A stretch of 64,000 nt of DNA. It comes from a phage. Below, piece after piece: positions 7,338 through 64,000 of this stretch. Position 1 is the first letter of the stretch, and each line of letters starts with the position of its first letter. The notes under the pieces were generated by a model. That model did no database searches and was not told the origin of the DNA. It worked only from the letters and a program-made list of their open reading frames with translations. Both the position numbers and the translations under genes were made by a program. The stretch lies in the sequence record PV730299.1. One strand, 5' to 3'.

Positions 7338-7826
7338 TTAGGCCAGTTTGCTCACCAGAGCTTCAACTGCGTCGGCGCTCAGTTTACCCATTTTGACGTA
7401 CTGAGCTTTTGCTTCACCACCAGCCGCTTTCACGATGTCTTCGTTTGCGTAGCCTTTCTTAGGGAAGACCATCACAGAGAAGGAACCGTTGTTCAGCGGG
7501 TTCAGCTGGATGCGACCTTTACCGACTACGATGGTGCCGTAAGTTTCGGTGTTTGCTTCGACAATGTGGATGTCGTGACCCAGGTTTTTCAGCATACCAA
7601 CTTTGTCGGCAGTCTTAGCAACCACAGCTTTGTCAACCACAACCTGCTCTACCAGGGTGAAGCCGTTTGTCGATTTCACTTTACCGTTCAGCAGGTTCAT
7701 GAAGGAAGTTTTACCACCAGTGAAGCCAGCTGCCTGAGCGATGCGGAACATTTCAACTTTAGCAACTTCGGTGTTCAGTTCGAAAGAGATGGTGCCGTTG
7801 GTGATCAGAGTTTTGGTAGTAGCCAT
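7338..7826 (-). CDS. hypothetical protein (likely abundant early protein)
   Basis: 162 aa Ala/Val/Lys-rich; strong SD GAGGAAT and a TTTACT-N17-TATTAT promoter upstream; start taken at MATTKTL. Confidence 0.6.
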   Translation of the reverse strand: MATTKTLITNGTISFELNTEVAKVEMFRIAQAAGFTGGKTSFMNLLNGKVKSTNGFTLVEQVVVDKAVVAKTADKVGMLKNLGHDIHIVEANTETYGTIVVGKGRIQLNPLNNGSFSVMVFPKKGYANEDIVKAAGGEAKAQYVKMGKLSADAVEALVSKLA

Positions 7827-7898
7827 GATGTAATTCCTCATAATGTAGTTGGTGCGTTTCACTTTTCATTCGGCGGTGTGTTGTCGCCCTATGTGAAC

Positions 7899-7928
7899 TA
7901 TAATAGTGCATCATTATTGAAGAGTAAA
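7899..7928 (-). promoter_or_regulatory. sigma70-like early promoter (TTTACT-N17-TATTAT)
   Basis: Minus-strand TTTACTCTTCAATAATGATGCACTATTAT about 70 nt upstream of the 7826 start. Confidence 0.5.
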
Positions 7929-7961
7929 GTCTTTTTCAATAATTTTTAAAAATTATTTTTG

Positions 7962-7994
7962 AAGTATTTTAAAAGGCCTCGTCGAATGAGGCCT
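7962..7994 (-). terminator. rho-independent terminator
   Basis: Hairpin AGGCCTC-N7-GAGGCCT followed by TTTAAAATACTT on the minus-strand transcript, after the stop of the 8023 gene. Confidence 0.6.
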
Positions 7995-8022
7995 GGAGGG
8001 AAGTGATGTGAATTAAAAAGTT

Positions 8023-26780: not shown

Positions 26781-27466
26781 CACTCGTTCTCCTTCATCAT
26801 ATTGTCGCAGTCAACACGAGTCTGCTGGAGTTCGCGCGACATGCGGGGATCATCAAGGTTCACGCTCAGATTCGTAGCCAGGTCTTTCAGACCGTTCTGA
26901 ACCCTGTCTTCAAAGTAATAATCGTTCTCAACCAGCCAGGCTCTGAGACCAAGAGCGCGGGTGCGCCATTCCTTCTTCAGGACGCGATCAGAGGTCTGTG
27001 TAGCGCTGTATTCGAATACTTTGATGCACTGGTTGCCATCGTTGATAAGGTTCAGGTGGCGGCGACCAACCTGCACACCCTTCTGTAATGCCGGAGAAGG
27101 GAGCGAACGGCACTGTCTTACGGTCATTCGGCCTTGGGTGCCCATACGCCCAGTCATGATCAAATCGCCAGCCTCCATGCCTCCACGGTTAAATTCGTCG
27201 TCATTGAGGTAGCCTTTGAGGTTATAGGCTCCCTGTTTGTAACGGTTGAACTCAATTCCGGCATTGACGACAGCAGTGGAGACGTTGCCTGTGTTCCAGA
27301 GTTCAGCGAAGTTCTCTATGGAACCAGACTTGTCGATGGCAACCGCCTGGGAGAACCCAGCGCAATAGGAAAGGTCGGACCACAGTTTATCACCTGTGGA
27401 GTTCAGCTTGGCAGCGGCGGGTAATGCCAGACCAACCAGCACAACCCCGAGGATTAAACGTTTCAT
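26780..27466 (-). CDS. secreted or membrane-anchored periplasmic protein
   Basis: 228 aa from MKRLILGVVLVGLALPAAA (hydrophobic N-terminus) with SD AAGGAGAA; immediately upstream of the lipoprotein gene. Confidence 0.55.
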   Translation of the reverse strand: MKRLILGVVLVGLALPAAAKLNSTGDKLWSDLSYCAGFSQAVAIDKSGSIENFAELWNTGNVSTAVVNAGIEFNRYKQGAYNLKGYLNDDEFNRGGMEAGDLIMTGRMGTQGRMTVRQCRSLPSPALQKGVQVGRRHLNLINDGNQCIKVFEYSATQTSDRVLKKEWRTRALGLRAWLVENDYYFEDRVQNGLKDLATNLSVNLDDPRMSRELQQTRVDCDNMMKENE

Positions 27467-27545
27467 GGCGATTCTCCTTATTTCATTGGATGAAATGATA
27501 GGCGGCTCACCATGATGAGTAAAGGGATTCAATAAACTATCGTAT

Positions 27546-27995
27546 TCAGAAACGGGTATCACTGACCGTTCTGTATCGCACACCCTGAAACTGTTTAGCG
27601 AGTTTAACAAATTCCATCGCTGGCAAATCAACTTTGTAGACCTTCATGCGCTGTTTGCCGTCCATGTTCAACGCAGCGACAAATCGGTGAGAACCGTCAA
27701 CAACGTAATTGTCAGAAGACACCCAAACTCGACCCATAGGTTTCTTATTTCTGATGTTCTTCATGATCTTCCAGACCTTCATCTTGTTGATTTCGTTCTG
27801 GGTAAGACGAAGCATTTTGATGGGCACTTGCACAGCATCTATGGACACGCCGTTGTCTTCAAGATATTTGTGAAAATCTTCTTGTTTGTCGGCATCGATT
27901 TGCGGCATAGAAGAACGAGAAAGCCCGAGGTTCCCAACAGGAATCCTCAGGCCGTTAATGATGTTCAACCAGTCAATAAAAGATGTAAGGAACAT
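27546..27995 (-). CDS. ParB-like nuclease domain protein
   Basis: 149 aa; motif YVVDGSHRFVAA matches the ParB/Srx DGxHR box. Confidence 0.55.
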   Translation of the reverse strand: MFLTSFIDWLNIINGLRIPVGNLGLSRSSMPQIDADKQEDFHKYLEDNGVSIDAVQVPIKMLRLTQNEINKMKVWKIMKNIRNKKPMGRVWVSSDNYVVDGSHRFVAALNMDGKQRMKVYKVDLPAMEFVKLAKQFQGVRYRTVSDTRF

Positions 27996-28027
27996 GACAC
28001 ACCTCGGGATATAGGGTTATCCCTTAG

Positions 28028-28186
28028 TTAGCGCATCCATCGATCCTTTCTCTCTTTCTCCTTGCGTTCGCGACGTTTCTGGTCGGATCGGAATAACCAA
28101 TAGAAGAAGTTCCCACCCAAGATGAAAACCACCGCGATTATTACTAGGACACCCTTCACAATTTCCCAAACCAATTCTTTATCCAA
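28028..28186 (-). CDS. small membrane protein (TTG start inferred)
   Basis: Hydrophobic segment VLVIIAVVFILGGNFFYWLF followed by a basic tail; SD GAGGTATAAT then TTG; the track ORF 28028-28219 starts at an upstream TTG overlapping the previous gene. Confidence 0.3.
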   Translation of the reverse strand: MDKELVWEIVKGVLVIIAVVFILGGNFFYWLFRSDQKRRERKEKERKDRWMR

Positions 28187-59075: not shown

Positions 59076-59771
59076 TTACACAATTCTAATTAGCTGCCAA
59101 CCCGTCGTGTTCAAACGCTCTGCGGTCGCAGTTTTCCTATGATACACAGACGGTGGTGGAACTGGAATACCCTTGTCGATGTAATCATAGAGTGCTGAAT
59201 ATTTAAGTCCCAACCTCTCCACATATTCACGACAGTTCCCGTGGATTTCGTGTTCTTCGCCGGAAGGAGATACCAATTTGAATCGCTTGGCATTGGAGTT
59301 TTTGGATCCGATTCTGCTCTTTGCAAATACAGATAAACTCTTCGAGAACGAACGTTTGACTCCGGTCTTACAATGTATCAGTTCCCCTGTAGCCCACCTT
59401 GGGTCATCACAGCCAACAAGACCAATTCGCTCTCCTGTTGACGCATCAATAGCACCTGTCTTTCCATAGAATGTCGCACCGTCACCACCCCAAGTTTTGT
59501 TGTACCCTTTCAGGGACATGTGGGTGCCATGCTGCTTAATCAATATGATCTCTAATTCTTTCAAGTCTTTCAGGGACTTGGTCTGGGCTATCACCTGTAC
59601 AGAAAATAATTCTTCTCCATATTTGCGGATAGCCTGATGAACAAAGTAACCAGAGCCGTTTTGAGCGCTGTTACAATGTTCCCACCACCTATCGATGGGA
59701 TCACGCGTGGTGATCCCGATATAGGCTTTCTGATTGACTAGATTTGTAATTTTGTAAACACTTCCGATCAT
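59076..59771 (-). CDS. GIY-YIG homing endonuclease (free-standing, between sheath and tube genes)
   Basis: 231 aa; N-terminal VYKITN...KAYIGIT (GIY...YIG), conserved Arg and Glu/Asn of the catalytic domain, C-terminal basic DNA-binding region. Confidence 0.8.
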   Translation of the reverse strand: MIGSVYKITNLVNQKAYIGITTRDPIDRWWEHCNSAQNGSGYFVHQAIRKYGEELFSVQVIAQTKSLKDLKELEIILIKQHGTHMSLKGYNKTWGGDGATFYGKTGAIDASTGERIGLVGCDDPRWATGELIHCKTGVKRSFSKSLSVFAKSRIGSKNSNAKRFKLVSPSGEEHEIHGNCREYVERLGLKYSALYDYIDKGIPVPPPSVYHRKTATAERLNTTGWQLIRIV

Positions 59772-59855: not shown

Positions 59856-61751
59856 TCAAGAAGCAGCGACGATACCACCGCCGGATTCGATCTCACTGAA
59901 TTCCATGTCTGGACGCACGGAAGCAAAATCTAAAAATATCCAATTAATACTGTACTCTGGTTTCAGCCAGATACCCGCGACCATCTGGTTCGCAGCGATG
60001 ATGTCGGCGGTGTTGTTGTCCTCGTCACACTTCACCATCCCGTCATAGATCGCGCCCATGTTGGCCAACTGGCGGATATATGGGCGGACAGCGTTGCTGA
60101 ACAACCCACGAGTGAATGCATCGTTGTTCTCACCAAGGTAGTATTTGGCGATGGCTGCGATGTTCTGCTCTGCCATAATGAACAGACCACGAACGTTGAT
60201 GCGGTCGAACGCAGATGGGCGGGTCAGGCCAGTCTTGTCGCCGTACAACACGATGCCTTCGTTGGAGAAGGTGACGATGCTGTTGATCTGGTTGCGATAC
60301 AACACAGCACGCTCATCAGAAGACGCAGACCACGCCATTCGATTATAGTTGTTGTATTTACCACGGTTGTGGAACGCTGGAGACTTGTAGATACCCGCGA
60401 TTTCAATGCTTCGCGCCCAAACACCTGCGGTGCCACCACAAGCCGGAATCCAACGCATTTTGTCGTTGTACTTGTCGTACACATACGCCCAGTTGTCATC
60501 CATGAAGAAGTAGGAGGAGTCGCGAACAAGGCTTTCACGCCAGGCCACAACATCATCCATCTCACGGCCACGGTTTCCGACGACCGTATCGCGAAGAGGA
60601 GACACGAAGGACACTGTGTCTTTACGCTCGGTGGACAGGTCGATCAGTGCCTGCTGCTCAATCAGTTCTTCACAGAAACCGAACACTGGCTTGGCATCAT
60701 ACGCTTCGGCGTTGTTCAGTGCCTGGATAGCCGCAACACGGTTCCCAGTGTAATCGTCTACACCACCTTCGAGTTCAATGACACCAGCAGCCAGGGTAGT
60801 GGCGAAGGTGTACACCCAATTTGAGGTGCCGTTGATCACGTCTTTGAAGTACGCATTGGATCCATCAGATTTCTTAGAACCCTGAGCGGTCTGCACCAGT
60901 TCATACTTCTCGATGATCGTACCGGAAGCACCAACAGTGGTGACGGCAGCGGTAGCAGTCAGACCATTCGCGTCTGGAACAATCGCAGTCGCAGCCTGAG
61001 GACCGATTGCTTTGTGAGTGACGGTGACGGTGTTGGACTTCACGACAACAGAAGAATACACGCTAGACAGAGACGTCAGCGCAGTTCCGATCTTTGTCGC
61101 CAGAGTCGCCGGGGTGTCAGCGTCAGTGTATGCCACGGCTTCCCCAGCAACAGAGATGGAACCAGCAGCGGTGGCAGTACCGGATACAGAGATACGATCA
61201 ACCTGACTAACAGCGCCAGAAGAGTCGGTAATGCGACCTACTTTGTCAACGATGGCGATATGGTACTCGCCATCCTGCGGAGCATATGCGAAGTTGTTAC
61301 GGAATTCCCAGGTCGGGAACAGCGCAGCGTCACAGATGTTCACAGCAATGTCGTTACCCAGAGAGCCAGCATAGCGGCCTGTCCAGGTAATAGACGCAGA
61401 TGGGGACGCAGTTTCGAAGTCTAGTTTGTTGCGGATAAGGATTGCAGTCTGACCTTTGGTTACAGCGTTGCGTGCCGCCGGACCGACCACACGGGTCACC
61501 CATGCAACAGAGCTGTAAGACAGGAAGTCAGCAATCACCAAGAAGTCGGTGGCAGTTGCATCGTTTGGCTTGAAGAATTTCTTCACCAGACCAGTTTCGC
61601 CACCAGTGACCAACACAGGGAGTTCTGCTTCACCCCATTGGAATTTGCCGACAGTCGCACCCTGAACAACAACGGATGGAGACGTCTGAAGCGTGGCATC
61701 ACGCTCAGTCCACTGTACGGACGGCGCAACGCTGAAGCTTTGAGTTGCCAT
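59856..61751 (-). CDS. 18: tail sheath protein, T4 gp18-like
   Basis: C-terminal blocks DKYNDKMRWIP, YGDKTGLTRPSAFDRINVRGLF, AFTRGLF are collinear with T4 gp18 (DKYNDVNRWVP, YGDKTATSVPSPFDRINVRRLF); start taken at MATQSF. Confidence 0.9.
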   Translation of the reverse strand: MATQSFSVAPSVQWTERDATLQTSPSVVVQGATVGKFQWGEAELPVLVTGGETGLVKKFFKPNDATATDFLVIADFLSYSSVAWVTRVVGPAARNAVTKGQTAILIRNKLDFETASPSASITWTGRYAGSLGNDIAVNICDAALFPTWEFRNNFAYAPQDGEYHIAIVDKVGRITDSSGAVSQVDRISVSGTATAAGSISVAGEAVAYTDADTPATLATKIGTALTSLSSVYSSVVVKSNTVTVTHKAIGPQAATAIVPDANGLTATAAVTTVGASGTIIEKYELVQTAQGSKKSDGSNAYFKDVINGTSNWVYTFATTLAAGVIELEGGVDDYTGNRVAAIQALNNAEAYDAKPVFGFCEELIEQQALIDLSTERKDTVSFVSPLRDTVVGNRGREMDDVVAWRESLVRDSSYFFMDDNWAYVYDKYNDKMRWIPACGGTAGVWARSIEIAGIYKSPAFHNRGKYNNYNRMAWSASSDERAVLYRNQINSIVTFSNEGIVLYGDKTGLTRPSAFDRINVRGLFIMAEQNIAAIAKYYLGENNDAFTRGLFSNAVRPYIRQLANMGAIYDGMVKCDEDNNTADIIAANQMVAGIWLKPEYSINWIFLDFASVRPDMEFSEIESGGGIVAAS

Positions 61752-61803: not shown

Positions 61804-64000
61804 TCACCGTCTCAGCCATTCTTCCATAGACATACCAGAGCGTTCATCATAAACCTGAATTCCACCGAACCCTGGGATGTTCTCCACAGAGTGAGGATCT
61901 GGCGTCGACATCATACCCCCAAATGGTAGCATCTGAGATTCTTCCATCGCAGACAACCGTCCTCTCATGTCCACAGAGATATTTGAATTGGTGAGATCAC
62001 TAAACCATTCTTGTTTCACCGCCCATGCATACAACACGAGGGGCATTACACAGTCATCATGACAACCATCATCGGCTTCATACCTTGTTCCAGTCCATAC
62101 GAATGTACTGAGTTCATCTATCGTGTCCTGGTCATCTATCACCAGCATTTCACGTTCAATCAGGGCTTTCAGGTTGGCACAGCCGTTTGTGCGCACCTTC
62201 TTGTTGGTATTGATACCAGGCTCAGGGCGGCGACCACCGATTCTCTTGCCTGTACCCTTGGTATCTGTTGTAGTGAATATGATCTCGGGATATTCAATTT
62301 CCTGATATAGAATTGTGATTACCTGACCACCCACGTCGTTGTTGGTCTCGACTAGCATCGGGCACGTTCCATACTTCTCACCCATATCGGCGATTGTGTA
62401 CGCGTACATCATTGGAGGTATCGTGTTATTTCGATACTTGGCTGCGATCTTGTGAGGATAGTCTGTGATGTCGATAATGGTCAGCACAGAATAATCCCCT
62501 TCGACACCCTTGCCTGTATCTGCGATACCCATATAGATGCGTTTAGGATCGTAGTCGTGATAAATCTTGGTGAACTCGTTCGGCTCCTGATACAGCTTCG
62601 AGGTCATCTTGTCCAGACACTTGGCAGGTATCAGTGATCCCACAGAACCACGGAACTTAATGCCAAATTCTTGATCGAAACGTGCATCACCCAGCTTCGC
62701 CCTCTGTTTGGATTCCCAGTCTGGATCTTTGGTGTACGTTGGAACACGATACCATGGGACCTCTGTGAGTTTGAAGTCGTTGTATTGTGGATGTTCTGGG
62801 TTCGCCTTGGTGACGATGTCGTAGAACAACCCGCGCTGACCTTTCGGCGTACTGGTCAGAATACAACGTGAAGTCTCTGCAGATGCAATCGCCGGGAATG
62901 TAGACTCCCAGAATTCAAAGTCGTTTTCAATGAACGCCACTTCGTCCACATACAGGAGCGATACAGATCGACCACGGATGGAGTCGGAAGATGTCGCATA
63001 GGCGTAGATCTTTGATCCGTTTTCGAACTCGATCAGCGTGGAACCGAACTTCTCACAACCCTGTTGGAGGAAGAATGGCAAATCTTGATATGCTTTGCGA
63101 ATACGATCTAGGATTTCAATCGCCTGCTTCTCTTTGTTCGCCAGTACTGCGATCTCTTTGTCGGAGTGGAACATCGCATACCAGAGCAGGAACGCTGCCA
63201 CGACAGTCGTGTTGTGGCTGAGGAAGCCGTTGGTGTAGTAGCGCTGATCACTAGATTTCACCTGTAGGTCATACATGTGATGCGTCTCACCAGTCTGCCA
63301 AACCTCACGGATTTCTTCTGGACCTTCTGACGTCATGATGTATGACCCAGCATTCAGGTCTTTGGCAAATATCTCCTTCATTTCCGGAGTGAAGAACATA
63401 TGTTCATCGGCCACGTTAATTCGCCGCCCAGTAACAGTCACAATAACGAATTCCGCATATTTCTTCGTCTTATGCGCTGCGATAACCGGAACCCAGCCAC
63501 TATCGGATTGCACAAAGTAACGTTTGCCGAAGCGGCTGTCCACGAACTTGTCATGGTTGCCAATGGTATTCAGCGGCACAGCGTGGTTGACGTCCTCGAA
63601 GCGGCTGTGAAGCTCCCCTATGGTCAGGAGCAACTGCTCTTGGCTGAGAGTATCGTAAACTGTGACAAGCGTGTCACCTTTTACACATTTCCCAGACTGA
63701 CGAGCCTGGACGACCGCATTGAATCGATAGTCCTGGAAGTCATGGAACAACTGCTTCTGATAATCGTGCATGTCAAAGAGGATGAAGCCTTTATCGATGG
63801 TCGTGATCTTGTAGTAGTTGGCGGCGAAGTAATGGGCGTCCATCGCGCACTCGACGAACTCCGATTCCTGCTCATCTGTTAGCATCAACTCCACACGAGG
63901 AGCGCGCACAGACGGCTTGCGCATGAACGTTTGGTCCATACGCAGTCTGACGTCTTCTGTCTTAAACCCCGTCTTGAGCGGGGCGTATTCCACATCACGC
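61804..64000 (-). CDS. 17: terminase large subunit, T4 gp17-like, containing a mini-intein; 5' end runs off the window
   Basis: Nuclease/ATPase blocks collinear with T4 gp17 (KDKAVGILAHK, LIEKDKLIIHH, EEGYHDDLVMSLV vs EKEIAVLANK, LIEREMLVID, DDGCHDDCVMPLV); reading frame still open at the window edge (the track M at 63993 is a GTG). Confidence 0.9.
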   Translation of the reverse strand, partial: RDVEYAPLKTGFKTEDVRLRMDQTFMRKPSVRAPRVELMLTDEQESEFVECAMDAHYFAANYYKITTIDKGFILFDMHDYQKQLFHDFQDYRFNAVVQARQSGKCVKGDTLVTVYDTLSQEQLLLTIGELHSRFEDVNHAVPLNTIGNHDKFVDSRFGKRYFVQSDSGWVPVIAAHKTKKYAEFVIVTVTGRRINVADEHMFFTPEMKEIFAKDLNAGSYIMTSEGPEEIREVWQTGETHHMYDLQVKSSDQRYYTNGFLSHNTTVVAAFLLWYAMFHSDKEIAVLANKEKQAIEILDRIRKAYQDLPFFLQQGCEKFGSTLIEFENGSKIYAYATSSDSIRGRSVSLLYVDEVAFIENDFEFWESTFPAIASAETSRCILTSTPKGQRGLFYDIVTKANPEHPQYNDFKLTEVPWYRVPTYTKDPDWESKQRAKLGDARFDQEFGIKFRGSVGSLIPAKCLDKMTSKLYQEPNEFTKIYHDYDPKRIYMGIADTGKGVEGDYSVLTIIDITDYPHKIAAKYRNNTIPPMMYAYTIADMGEKYGTCPMLVETNNDVGGQVITILYQEIEYPEIIFTTTDTKGTGKRIGGRRPEPGINTNKKVRTNGCANLKALIEREMLVIDDQDTIDELSTFVWTGTRYEADDGCHDDCVMPLVLYAWAVKQEWFSDLTNSNISVDMRGRLSAMEESQMLPFGGMMSTPDPHSVENIPGFGGIQVYDERSGMSMEEWLRR
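63211..63687 (-). mobile_element. mini-intein (about 159 aa) inserted in the Walker A P-loop of the terminase large subunit
   Basis: Host sequence QARQSGK / TTVVAAF reconstitutes the P-loop GKT when the segment is removed; the insert begins with Cys (CVKGDTLV) and ends with His-Asn followed by Thr (GFLSHN/T), the class 1 intein boundaries. Confidence 0.75.

Follow-up and report, generated by a model that had tools for sequence, protein, structure and literature searches.

A predicted class 1 mini-intein in the P-loop of an Ackermannviridae large terminase subunit, and exchange of its alleles between genera

The large terminase subunit (TerL) of the phage analysed here, a member of the Ackermannviridae, very probably harbours a functional class 1 mini-intein, whose splicing would restore the GKT P-loop and would be needed for packaging. 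The analysis bears on a stretch of 64,000 nucleotides of phage DNA (PV730299.1), called hereafter the window. This intein has been known in related phages since 2013, so that the observation, already made in a preliminary description of the window, is correct but not new. The new element is that intein alleles have been exchanged between genera of the family.

Insertion in the Walker A motif of TerL

The terL gene lies on the minus strand and extends past the right edge of the window, with its ATG and about five codons (MAYQK) outside. This follows from its homologues, which start with MAYQKRD and measure 736 aa, and it places the true start about 14 nt past the window end. The full precursor has 736 aa (84.5 kDa). 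Its parts are:

61804..64000, minus strand: TerL precursor gene, T4 gp17-type (Pfam Terminase_6N and Terminase_6C, T4 gp17 structures, 736-aa homologues)
63688..64000, minus strand: N-extein, ending in ARQSGK, the first half of Walker A (aligned with SRQLGK166 of T4 gp17 and CRQSGK of D507)
63211..63687, minus strand: predicted class 1 mini-intein, 159 aa, 18.3 kDa (CVKGDTLV...YYTNGFLSHN; profiles, fold, residues)
61804..63210, minus strand: C-extein, with the remainder of the ATPase domain, the RNaseH-like nuclease domain and the stop codon (Pfam, T4 gp17 match)

The gene had been taken for a gp17 homologue, and the T4 gp17 structures 3ezk and 3cpe indeed match it with an E-value of about 1e-64 (phmmer), in agreement with the two Pfam domains. 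This match is made of two blocks that meet at SRQLGK|TTVVAIFL, so that the remaining 159 aa are cleanly inserted in Walker A, after its Lys and before its Thr (ARQSGK|TTVVAAF). Similarly, the intein-free TerL of Vibrio phage D507 (580 aa) is contiguous across the junction (CRQSGKTTVVAAFLLWYAL, no gap), and identity to the intein-free Vibrio-phage orthologue is 68% across the junction region. Both alignments bear out the earlier claim that the extra segment sits between GK and T. Its limits (63211-63687) are exact, with the Cys codon at 63685-63687 and the Asn codon at 63211-63213 on the minus strand. An excess of about 160 residues had been announced; the insert itself has 159 aa, and the excess over the intein-free orthologue is 156 aa. 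The insert corresponds to residues 103-261 of the listed open reading frame (61804..63993), and to residues 110-268 of the full protein.

The probability that this region reflects an assembly or annotation artefact, or that the real gene is an antisense reading frame, is practically nil. A 160-aa open reading frame does exist on the opposite strand (63400..63882, plus strand), but the period-3 substitutions between relatives fit the minus-strand frame, and it was rejected on that account. As to an artefact, over 250 phage genomes, each sequenced independently, contain the 477-nt insert without damage.

Splice residues, fold and class of the insert

The positions expected to take part in splicing, together with one loop, are the following:

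63685..63687, minus strand: Cys1 codon TGT, block A nucleophile (present in 14/14 family members)
63550..63600, minus strand: intein loop, about residues 30-46, the sole low-confidence region of the model (pLDDT <50 at residues 34-40)
63400..63402, minus strand: block B His96 codon, motif ADEH (invariant in two intein alignments)
63268..63270, minus strand: block F Asp140 codon, in MYDLQV (invariant in two intein alignments)
63211..63216, minus strand: block G His158-Asn159 codons, C-terminal splice junction (His 63214-63216, Asn 63211-63213)
63208..63210, minus strand: Thr+1 codon, C-extein nucleophile and Thr of the Walker A GKT (T4 gp17 and D507 alignments)

A Cys start, a His-Asn end and a Thr next to it had been proposed, and they are read directly from these codons; the Lys codon (63688-63690, minus strand) directly precedes Cys1. 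Cys1, His96, Asp140, His158-Asn159 and Thr+1 are unchanged in 14 phages of 5 genera, and in each of these the intein is exactly 159 aa long, without stop codons. Across 48 distant relatives, H96, D140 and H158 never vary, and at least 90% keep N159. Cys1 is also found in the inteins of phages VAP7 and CPt10. Block B (TxxH) has Ala where Thr is usual (ADEH, ADDH or ADKH), a feature shared with the intein VidaL. Thr at position +1 is a rarer and weaker nucleophile than Cys or Ser. The insert is not a conserved native domain devoid of splicing motifs, since intein-free orthologues exist and the splice residues are invariant between alleles that share no more than 65-77% of their nucleotides.

Profile searches with the insert alone gave 35.9 bits (E 8.4e-9) for Pfam Intein_splicing (PF14890, cut-off 35.8) and 25.1 bits for TIGR01445 (cut-off 24.5). 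The C-terminal model TIGR01443 gave 14.1 bits, under its cut-off of 15.6, and the full-length protein scored 29.8 bits with PF14890, under the gathering score of 35.8. With the insert alone, two of the three scores are just above their cut-offs and one is not, and the assignment draws on fold, insertion geometry and residue conservation in addition to these borderline thresholds. A word-index homologue search returned 3 matches with the single insert sequence and 52 with a 6-sequence profile; among 1.8 billion representative proteins, 728 relatives of the insert were detected at E<=1e-3.

An AF2 model of the insert has the HINT fold (pLDDT 91.5, pTM 0.84). The best 50 Foldseek matches in the PDB were all HINT-fold splicing domains, nearly all of them inteins, with a probability of 1.00 each, and the first was VidaL (6VGV, E 1.6e-9, TM 0.76/0.83). 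Taken with the Pfam E-value and the 728 relatives, this puts the resemblance to inteins far above chance. The whole chain is within this fold except for a 7-residue loop. The surrounding segment (about residues 30-46) is where VAP7 inserts 19 aa and where metagenomic relatives are naturally split. The insert had been judged too short for a homing endonuclease, rightly so: its 159 aa are accounted for by the HINT fold, and no LAGLIDADG, HNH or GIY-YIG profile matched in the Pfam search. A hidden endonuclease domain was therefore rejected on both the Pfam search and the model.

Judged from its sequence and modelled fold, the insert is assigned to class 1, as a mini-intein without endonuclease at the classic P-loop site. 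A class 3 intein, which would have the WCT triad (Trp in block B, Cys in block F, Thr in block G) and make no use of a nucleophile at position 1, was discarded: Cys1 is in place, block F has Asp140, and the intein contains no further Cys. A naturally split intein was also discarded: the reading frame is single and uninterrupted in the window and in 14 relatives, and splits were seen only in metagenomic relatives. Bacterial intein-like (BIL) domains usually belong to variable parts of non-conserved proteins, and as a rule no +1 nucleophile follows them. Here the host site is an invariant catalytic motif, Thr+1 is conserved, and BIL2 structures rank only 33rd or lower in the Foldseek search, so this possibility was rejected as well.

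It is very improbable that the insert is a HINT domain without splicing activity, be it a degenerate or domesticated intein or something BIL-like, with TerL active while carrying it or after cleavage only. Such a loss would fit with the borderline profile scores, the Ala of block B and the fixation of an endonuclease-less element across a whole phage family, as might happen with a domesticated domain; no splicing experiment on any Ackermannviridae TerL was found in the literature searched. However, the splice residues, +1 nucleophile included, are strictly kept across alleles that are 23-33% divergent in protein, and the insert parts K from T in GKT, which must adjoin in the P-loop and are contiguous in intein-free orthologues. 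The nearest structural relatives are, moreover, inteins with solved structures, and the BIL-like variant is at odds with the location and +1 residue of the insert.

Relatives of the intein and exchange of its alleles

TerL inteins of Vi01-like phages were reported in the genome papers of phages Marshall (2013, PMC3853055) and Mooltan (2019, PMC6486243). Those of Marshall, Maynard and Mooltan are orthologous to the window intein: 159 aa, the same Lys|Thr Walker A site and splice residues, and no endonuclease. The RefSeq "intein" entry of Salmonella phages Marshall and Maynard (YP_008772116.1) shares 77% protein identity with it. These two phages carry an ECML-4-type allele, whereas the window has a CBA120-type allele with an Agtrevirus-type C-terminus. 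Further away, Vibrio phage VAP7 (Vapseptimavirus, Ackermannviridae) has an intein at the same site and with the same splice residues, but longer (179 aa, 31% identity), its 19-aa insertion being in the loop after the first helix. The intein of Campylobacter phages CP220 and CPt10, annotated with PROSITE intein signatures, belongs to the same sequence family (33-34% identity) and is also a mini-intein in the P-loop of a gp17-type TerL; it differs in its insertion point, which comes three residues sooner within Walker A (PRQ|SSKST), and in having Ser+1.

Among inteins of solved structure, the Cat consensus intein (6DSL) is the closest by sequence (E 0.005) and VidaL by fold. AceL-TerL, GOS-TerL, Cat and VidaL share with the window intein the block F/G pattern YDL...YYTNG(I/F)xSHN and an Ala or Ser in place of the block B Thr. 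In contrast, they are split, with an N-piece of 25-37 aa and a C-piece of 104-115 aa acting in trans, and the published AceL, GOS and Cat inteins use Cys+1, whereas the window intein is contiguous and predicted to act in cis, with Thr+1. Metagenomic relatives (about 40% identity) occupy the identical K|T/S site of TerL.

Lys|Thr is the classic P-loop intein site (Kelley et al. 2016, mBio, PMC5050341). The mycobacteriophage intein TerL1-a has the identical insertion point in Walker A, after the invariant Lys and before the nucleophilic Thr, and there too splicing is argued to be needed for the active site, but its host protein is of the Terminase_1 family, versus Terminase_6/gp17-type in the window, and no close sequence relationship was detected between TerL1-a and the window intein. 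Kelley et al. showed that five other TerL inteins, TerL1-a not among them, splice in a reporter, and argued that TerL pentamers cannot form while the intein stays. The TerL1-b and TerL1-c inteins carry active endonucleases (PMC5050341).

Of 254 related phage records, 251 contain the intein, and about 61 related Vibrio phage records lack it. It is vertically fixed in terL of the enterobacterial Ackermannviridae. Between allele groups (14 phages, 5 genera), alleles share 64-83% of their nucleotides, and they evolve under purifying selection (pN about 0.15, pS 0.48-0.77, dN/dS about 0.06-0.22). A foreign composition of the insert was discarded, the GC content of the intein being that of the genome (49.7%).

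Alignment of the window with terL of other genera revealed a mosaic:

63287..63759, minus strand: Kuttervirus (CBA120-like) recombinant patch in an Agtrevirus-like gene (mismatch contrast with the flanks)

The patch covers about 24 codons of the N-extein and intein residues 1 to about 133. Most of the intein and about 70 nt of its upstream flank are 97% identical to Kuttervirus CBA120, versus 81-82% in the flanks, with 17 mismatches over 473 nt in the patch compared to 173 over 927 nt outside (Fisher p 2e-17). The exteins are Agtrevirus-like, with 94% identity to MK-13 in the ATPase part, and the CBA120-type allele is joined to the C-terminal 26 residues of an Agtrevirus-type intein. Kuttervirus itself carries two intein alleles that are mutually only 71% identical. 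Therefore, alleles without endonuclease have been exchanged between genera. The CBA120-type allele replaced the resident one in the Agtrevirus-like clade of the window and in part of Kuttervirus, co-converting about 70 nt of the 5' flank. Such patches (at least about 94% identity to CBA120) are not confined to the intein, four being found within the 64-kb window, so that the CBA120 comparison does not prove the intein to be a recombination hot spot.

One may speculate that the swaps are a case of collaborative homing in trans, with breaks made by neighbouring free-standing homing endonucleases, but this seems unlikely. A GIY-YIG homing endonuclease gene is located between gp18 and gp19 in the window, and NUMOD3/F-LimIX-type endonuclease genes lie between terS and terL in relatives. 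Among the relatives compared, no link was apparent between an upstream endonuclease gene and the intein allele: the allele found in LIMEstone1 and SKML-39, which have the gene, is also that of MK-13, SW16-7 and EspM4VN, which do not, and neither the window clade nor CBA120 has one upstream of terL.

Predicted splicing pathway and its consequences

TerL would be made as a precursor of 84.5 kDa, with the 18.3-kDa HINT domain interrupting its ATP-binding loop. Cys1, helped by block B His96, would perform the N-S acyl shift at the Lys-Cys bond, and the hydroxyl of Thr+1 would then attack the thioester to give a branched ester. Cyclisation of Asn159, helped by His158 and Asp140, would release the intein, and an O-N shift would re-form the Lys-Thr peptide bond, yielding a TerL of 66.3 kDa in which the GKT P-loop is whole. 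As the P-loop is interrupted by the insert, we infer that packaging needs splicing. Persistence of an intein without endonuclease may be explained by its place in an essential motif, from which nothing short of a precise deletion could remove it, while selection would keep it competent for splicing. Alleles would pass from one phage to another during co-infection through homologous recombination, the crossovers falling in the conserved flanks.

There is a small chance that the intein splices but is kept as a conditional switch (redox, temperature or timing), gating terminase activity and the start of packaging. In favour of this, it sits in the catalytic P-loop, and TerL could do harm if its nuclease or ATPase were active too early; the intein is also fixed throughout the family, under purifying selection, and regulatory roles for P-loop inteins are discussed by Kelley et al. 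(PMC5050341). However, a purely selfish element lodged at an essential site should be under purifying selection just as much, and the related Vibrio phages mentioned above do without the intein. An intra-intein disulfide trap is ruled out, as Cys1 is the sole cysteine of the intein.

If the intein is spliced as we propose, packaging would depend on protein splicing in a therapeutically used family (Kuttervirus, Agtrevirus, Limestonevirus, Taipeivirus). The exchange of alleles is a modest but concrete case of intein mobility without a resident endonuclease, and the window intein is an unsplit cousin of the atypically split TerL inteins that serve in protein engineering. The terL product is best annotated as an intein-bearing precursor, following the RefSeq treatment of Marshall and Maynard; the majority of the 250+ related records, closest relatives included, are labelled only "terminase large subunit" or "hypothetical protein". 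TerL sequences inflated by the intein distort terminase-based phylogenies and predictions of packaging type.

As a separate observation, contig L019 contains in-frame stops under translation table 11, a sign that a stop codon may be recoded there.

The insert in the Walker A motif of TerL

The large terminase gene, of the T4 gp17 type, occupies the right end of the window:

61804..63993, minus strand: terL ORF as listed, with no in-frame stop up to the window edge
63211..63687, minus strand: the 159-residue insert

The listed GTG start at 63993 is internal. Because TerL homologues (736 aa) begin MAYQKRD... at a start seven codons upstream, five past the window edge, sequence comparison places the true ATG some 14 nt beyond the right edge, where terL overlaps the end of terS, and the ORF exits the window at 63994..64000. 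Pfam assigned Terminase_6N and Terminase_6C to the ORF. Sequences of the T4 gp17 crystal structures matched it at E ~1e-64 in two blocks, the first aligning ...ARQSGK with ...SRQLGK of T4 and the second TTVVAAFLL with TTVVAIFL. Residues 103-261 of the ORF, unmatched by T4 gp17, are 159 residues encoded by exactly 63211..63687, and direct reading of the codons gave Cys first, His-Asn last and Thr next. The preliminary description, which had put an extra segment starting with Cys and ending with His-Asn before Thr between GK and T of Walker A, was therefore exact in both coordinates and junctions.

It had also proposed comparison with intein-free homologues and with intein profiles. A 580-aa TerL without insert is encoded by Vibrio phage D507 and by about 60 sister records with genomes of 157 kb; it reads CRQSGKTTVVAAFLLWYAL uninterrupted and shows 68% identity over the junction region. 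In these genomes, as in the window, a tail-sheath gene follows terL. Run against only the insert, the profiles gave a mixed answer: Intein_splicing of Pfam (35.9 bits, cut-off 35.8, E 8.4e-9) and TIGR01445, the intein N-terminal region (25.1 bits, cut-off 24.5), were borderline, just over their cut-offs, while TIGR01443, the C-terminal region, stayed below (14.1 bits, cut-off 15.6). Since these scores were borderline, independent evidence was sought. An AlphaFold2 model built from a 48-sequence alignment had a pLDDT of 91.5 and a pTM of 0.84, with only a 7-residue loop (34-40) uncertain. Its best 50 PDB matches by Foldseek were all HINT-fold splicing domains, nearly all of them inteins, headed by VidaL (E 1.6e-9, TM 0.76/0.83) and followed by Mxe GyrA, CDC21, Npu and Ssp DnaB, and gp41-1.

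Class of the intein and predicted splicing

Residues were compared in 14 phages of the family Ackermannviridae, which represent five genera (Kuttervirus, Agtrevirus, Limestonevirus, Taipeivirus, Miltonvirus). In all 14 the insert is exactly 159 aa without stop codons and retains Cys1, block B His96 (AD[EDK]H), block F Asp140 ([YF]DLQ), His158-Asn159 and Thr+1; H96, D140 and H158 are invariant in 48 relatives of roughly 25-45% identity. No endonuclease domain was detectable by profile search of the insert or in the AlphaFold2 model, in agreement with the earlier remark that the segment is too short to carry one. A class 3 intein was ruled out, because Cys1 is present, there is no WCT triad and the cysteine is single. 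The element is thus a genuine class 1 mini-intein, inserted at the classic Lys-Thr site of Walker A, with splicing predicted. Between divergent alleles, its pN is ~0.15, its pS 0.48-0.77 and its dN/dS ~0.06-0.22, versus a dN/dS of 0.01-0.03 for the adjacent ATPase domain; these rates indicate purifying selection on the intein, weaker than on that domain.

Earlier work has already described the intein in this phage family. The genome announcement of Salmonella phage Marshall (2013, PMC3853055) described the large terminase subunit as intein-interrupted, unlike that of T4, and the Mooltan announcement (2019, PMC6486243) likewise. Kelley et al. 2016 (PMC5050341) call an insertion that separates the invariant Lys from the nucleophilic Thr the "classic" P-loop intein insertion, and showed splicing of other TerL inteins in a reporter; Novikova et al. 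2016 count Terminase_6 as a common intein host. RefSeq has a 159-aa entry, YP_008772116.1, under the name "intein"; it is 77% identical to the window intein. Of 254 related records in the phage collection, 251 span 80% or more of terL, insert included, and 310 records were retrieved when the intein protein was the sole query. Among the 310 are more distant versions: that of Vibrio phage VAP7 occupies the same site but has 179 aa and 31% identity, and that of Campylobacter phages CP220 and CPt10 lies three residues earlier in Walker A.

By established intein chemistry, an 84.5-kDa TerL precursor whose P-loop the HINT domain interrupts would form a thioester at Cys1 with the help of His96, followed by transesterification by Thr+1, cyclisation of Asn159 assisted by His158 and Asp140, and an O-N shift, yielding a 66.3-kDa TerL containing ...ARQSGKTTVVAAF... 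and a free 18.3-kDa intein (computed masses). ATP-Mg binding needs the K and T of GKT to be contiguous. In addition, Kelley et al. 2016 (PMC5050341), who placed TerL intein sites on a pentamer, judged assembly unlikely while the intein is present. For both reasons DNA packaging should require splicing. No splicing experiment on this phage family was found in the searched literature.

Exchange of intein alleles between genera

The sole non-trivial addition to this known intein is an allele exchange between genera. At the nucleotide level the ATPase part is 94% identical to the Agtreviruses MK-13, SW16-7 and SNUABM02, 92% to LIMEstone1 and 82% to Kutterviruses; judged by sequence, the exteins are Agtrevirus-like. 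In intein segment 63287-63687 the identity is 97% with Kuttervirus CBA120 but drops to 74-76% with those Agtreviruses, and the final 25 intein codons are Agtrevirus-type. Over the 72 nt just upstream of the intein, identity is 93% with each of the three sampled Kutterviruses and 83-86% with Agtreviruses, pointing to a Kuttervirus-like donor and to a 5' flank converted together with the intein. Mismatches to CBA120 number 17/473 in the patch 63287-63759 versus 173/927 in the flanks (Fisher p 2e-17), and synonymous divergence is 0.28 in the intein versus ~1.7 in the flanks. The two Kutterviruses CBA120 and ECML-4 share their N-extein completely (100% identity) and are 90% identical in the ATPase part, but their inteins reach only 71%. 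An allele of the CBA120/window type (at least 95% aa identity) occurs in roughly 94 records, and the identity band of 60-80% holds 183. Such exchanges are rare, yet not limited to the intein, as identity to CBA120 (median 77%) reaches about 94% or more in only four patches of the 64-kb window.

A second CBA120-like patch lies in gp18 (60201..60586, ~93-97% versus ~78% in the flanks; 87-90% to MK-13) and suggests another inter-genus recombination tract, close to a GIY-YIG gene. The only other stretches at least 94% identical to CBA120 are 7601..8001 and 27401..28051, which may reflect either strong conservation or transfer. The intein of Salmonella phage ISTP3 (L012:2501-2977) is 93% identical in nucleotides to the ECML-4 allele and nearer than ECML-4 to the CBA120/window allele (77% versus 71%). 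Its protein is 80.5% identical to that of the window, and it is a possible mosaic of two alleles.

Homing-endonuclease genes were found nearby:

59076..59771, minus strand: GIY-YIG (Seg-type) homing-endonuclease gene, 231 aa (Pfam PF01541, E 3e-8)
L004:2809-3693: F-LimIX of LIMEstone1, between terS and terL
L013:1-375 (SKML-39): homing-endonuclease gene of F-LimIX or NUMOD3 type, between terS and terL
L016:1-384 (pSal-SNUABM-02): NUMOD3 homing-endonuclease gene, between terS and terL

The GIY-YIG gene is free-standing and flanked by the genes for tail sheath (gp18) and tail tube (gp19). This slot is polymorphic, with nothing in MK-13, a 72% similar gene in ECML-4, a different, SegD-like gene in CBA120, and unrelated sequence in LHE287 (99% identical in terL). 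The three terS-terL genes lie directly upstream of an intein-bearing terL; none occurs there in the window clade, CBA120, ECML-4 or MK-13. Free-standing homing endonucleases could stimulate such conversions; among the genomes compared, no association between endonuclease-gene presence and intein allele was found.

Split relatives and other ATPase hosts

An exhaustive phmmer search gave 728 relatives of the window intein, most aligning only to residues ~46-160, with the match beginning in the target's first 20 residues. An alignment and one genomic context, in the 219-kb metagenomic phage contig L019, show that they come from fractured terL genes, as the C-pieces of atypically split inteins. 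In L019:3530-7510, terL is spread over three genes by two such inteins:

gene 1: ends ...SGRxQGK, then C + 32 aa and a stop
gene 2: 115-aa C-intein ending SHN before S, then middle extein, then N-piece of the second split intein
downstream of gene 2: NUMOD-like endonuclease gene, then gene 3

The first split intein occupies the same P-loop site, between K and S/T, and the NUMOD-like gene lies between pieces. In-frame stops in the called genes under table 11 suggest a reassigned stop codon in L019. On the same two grounds, the window intein is a contiguous cousin, at ~40% identity, of split inteins of the AceL/GOS/Cat-TerL and VidaL type, which are also its best PDB matches. The natural split point matches the loop of the window intein at residues ~30-46, the sole low-confidence region of the model and the place of the 19-aa insertion of VAP7; this loop is plausibly the scar of a former endonuclease insertion.

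The full-length relatives (P0073, P0173, P0095, P0167, P0153) include inteins in DnaB-like helicases, AAA ATPases and a gp44-type clamp loader, where they would occupy the P-loop, and the subfamily appears to hop between ATPases. P0153, a TerL, carries a window-type intein together with a second intein containing LAGLIDADG.
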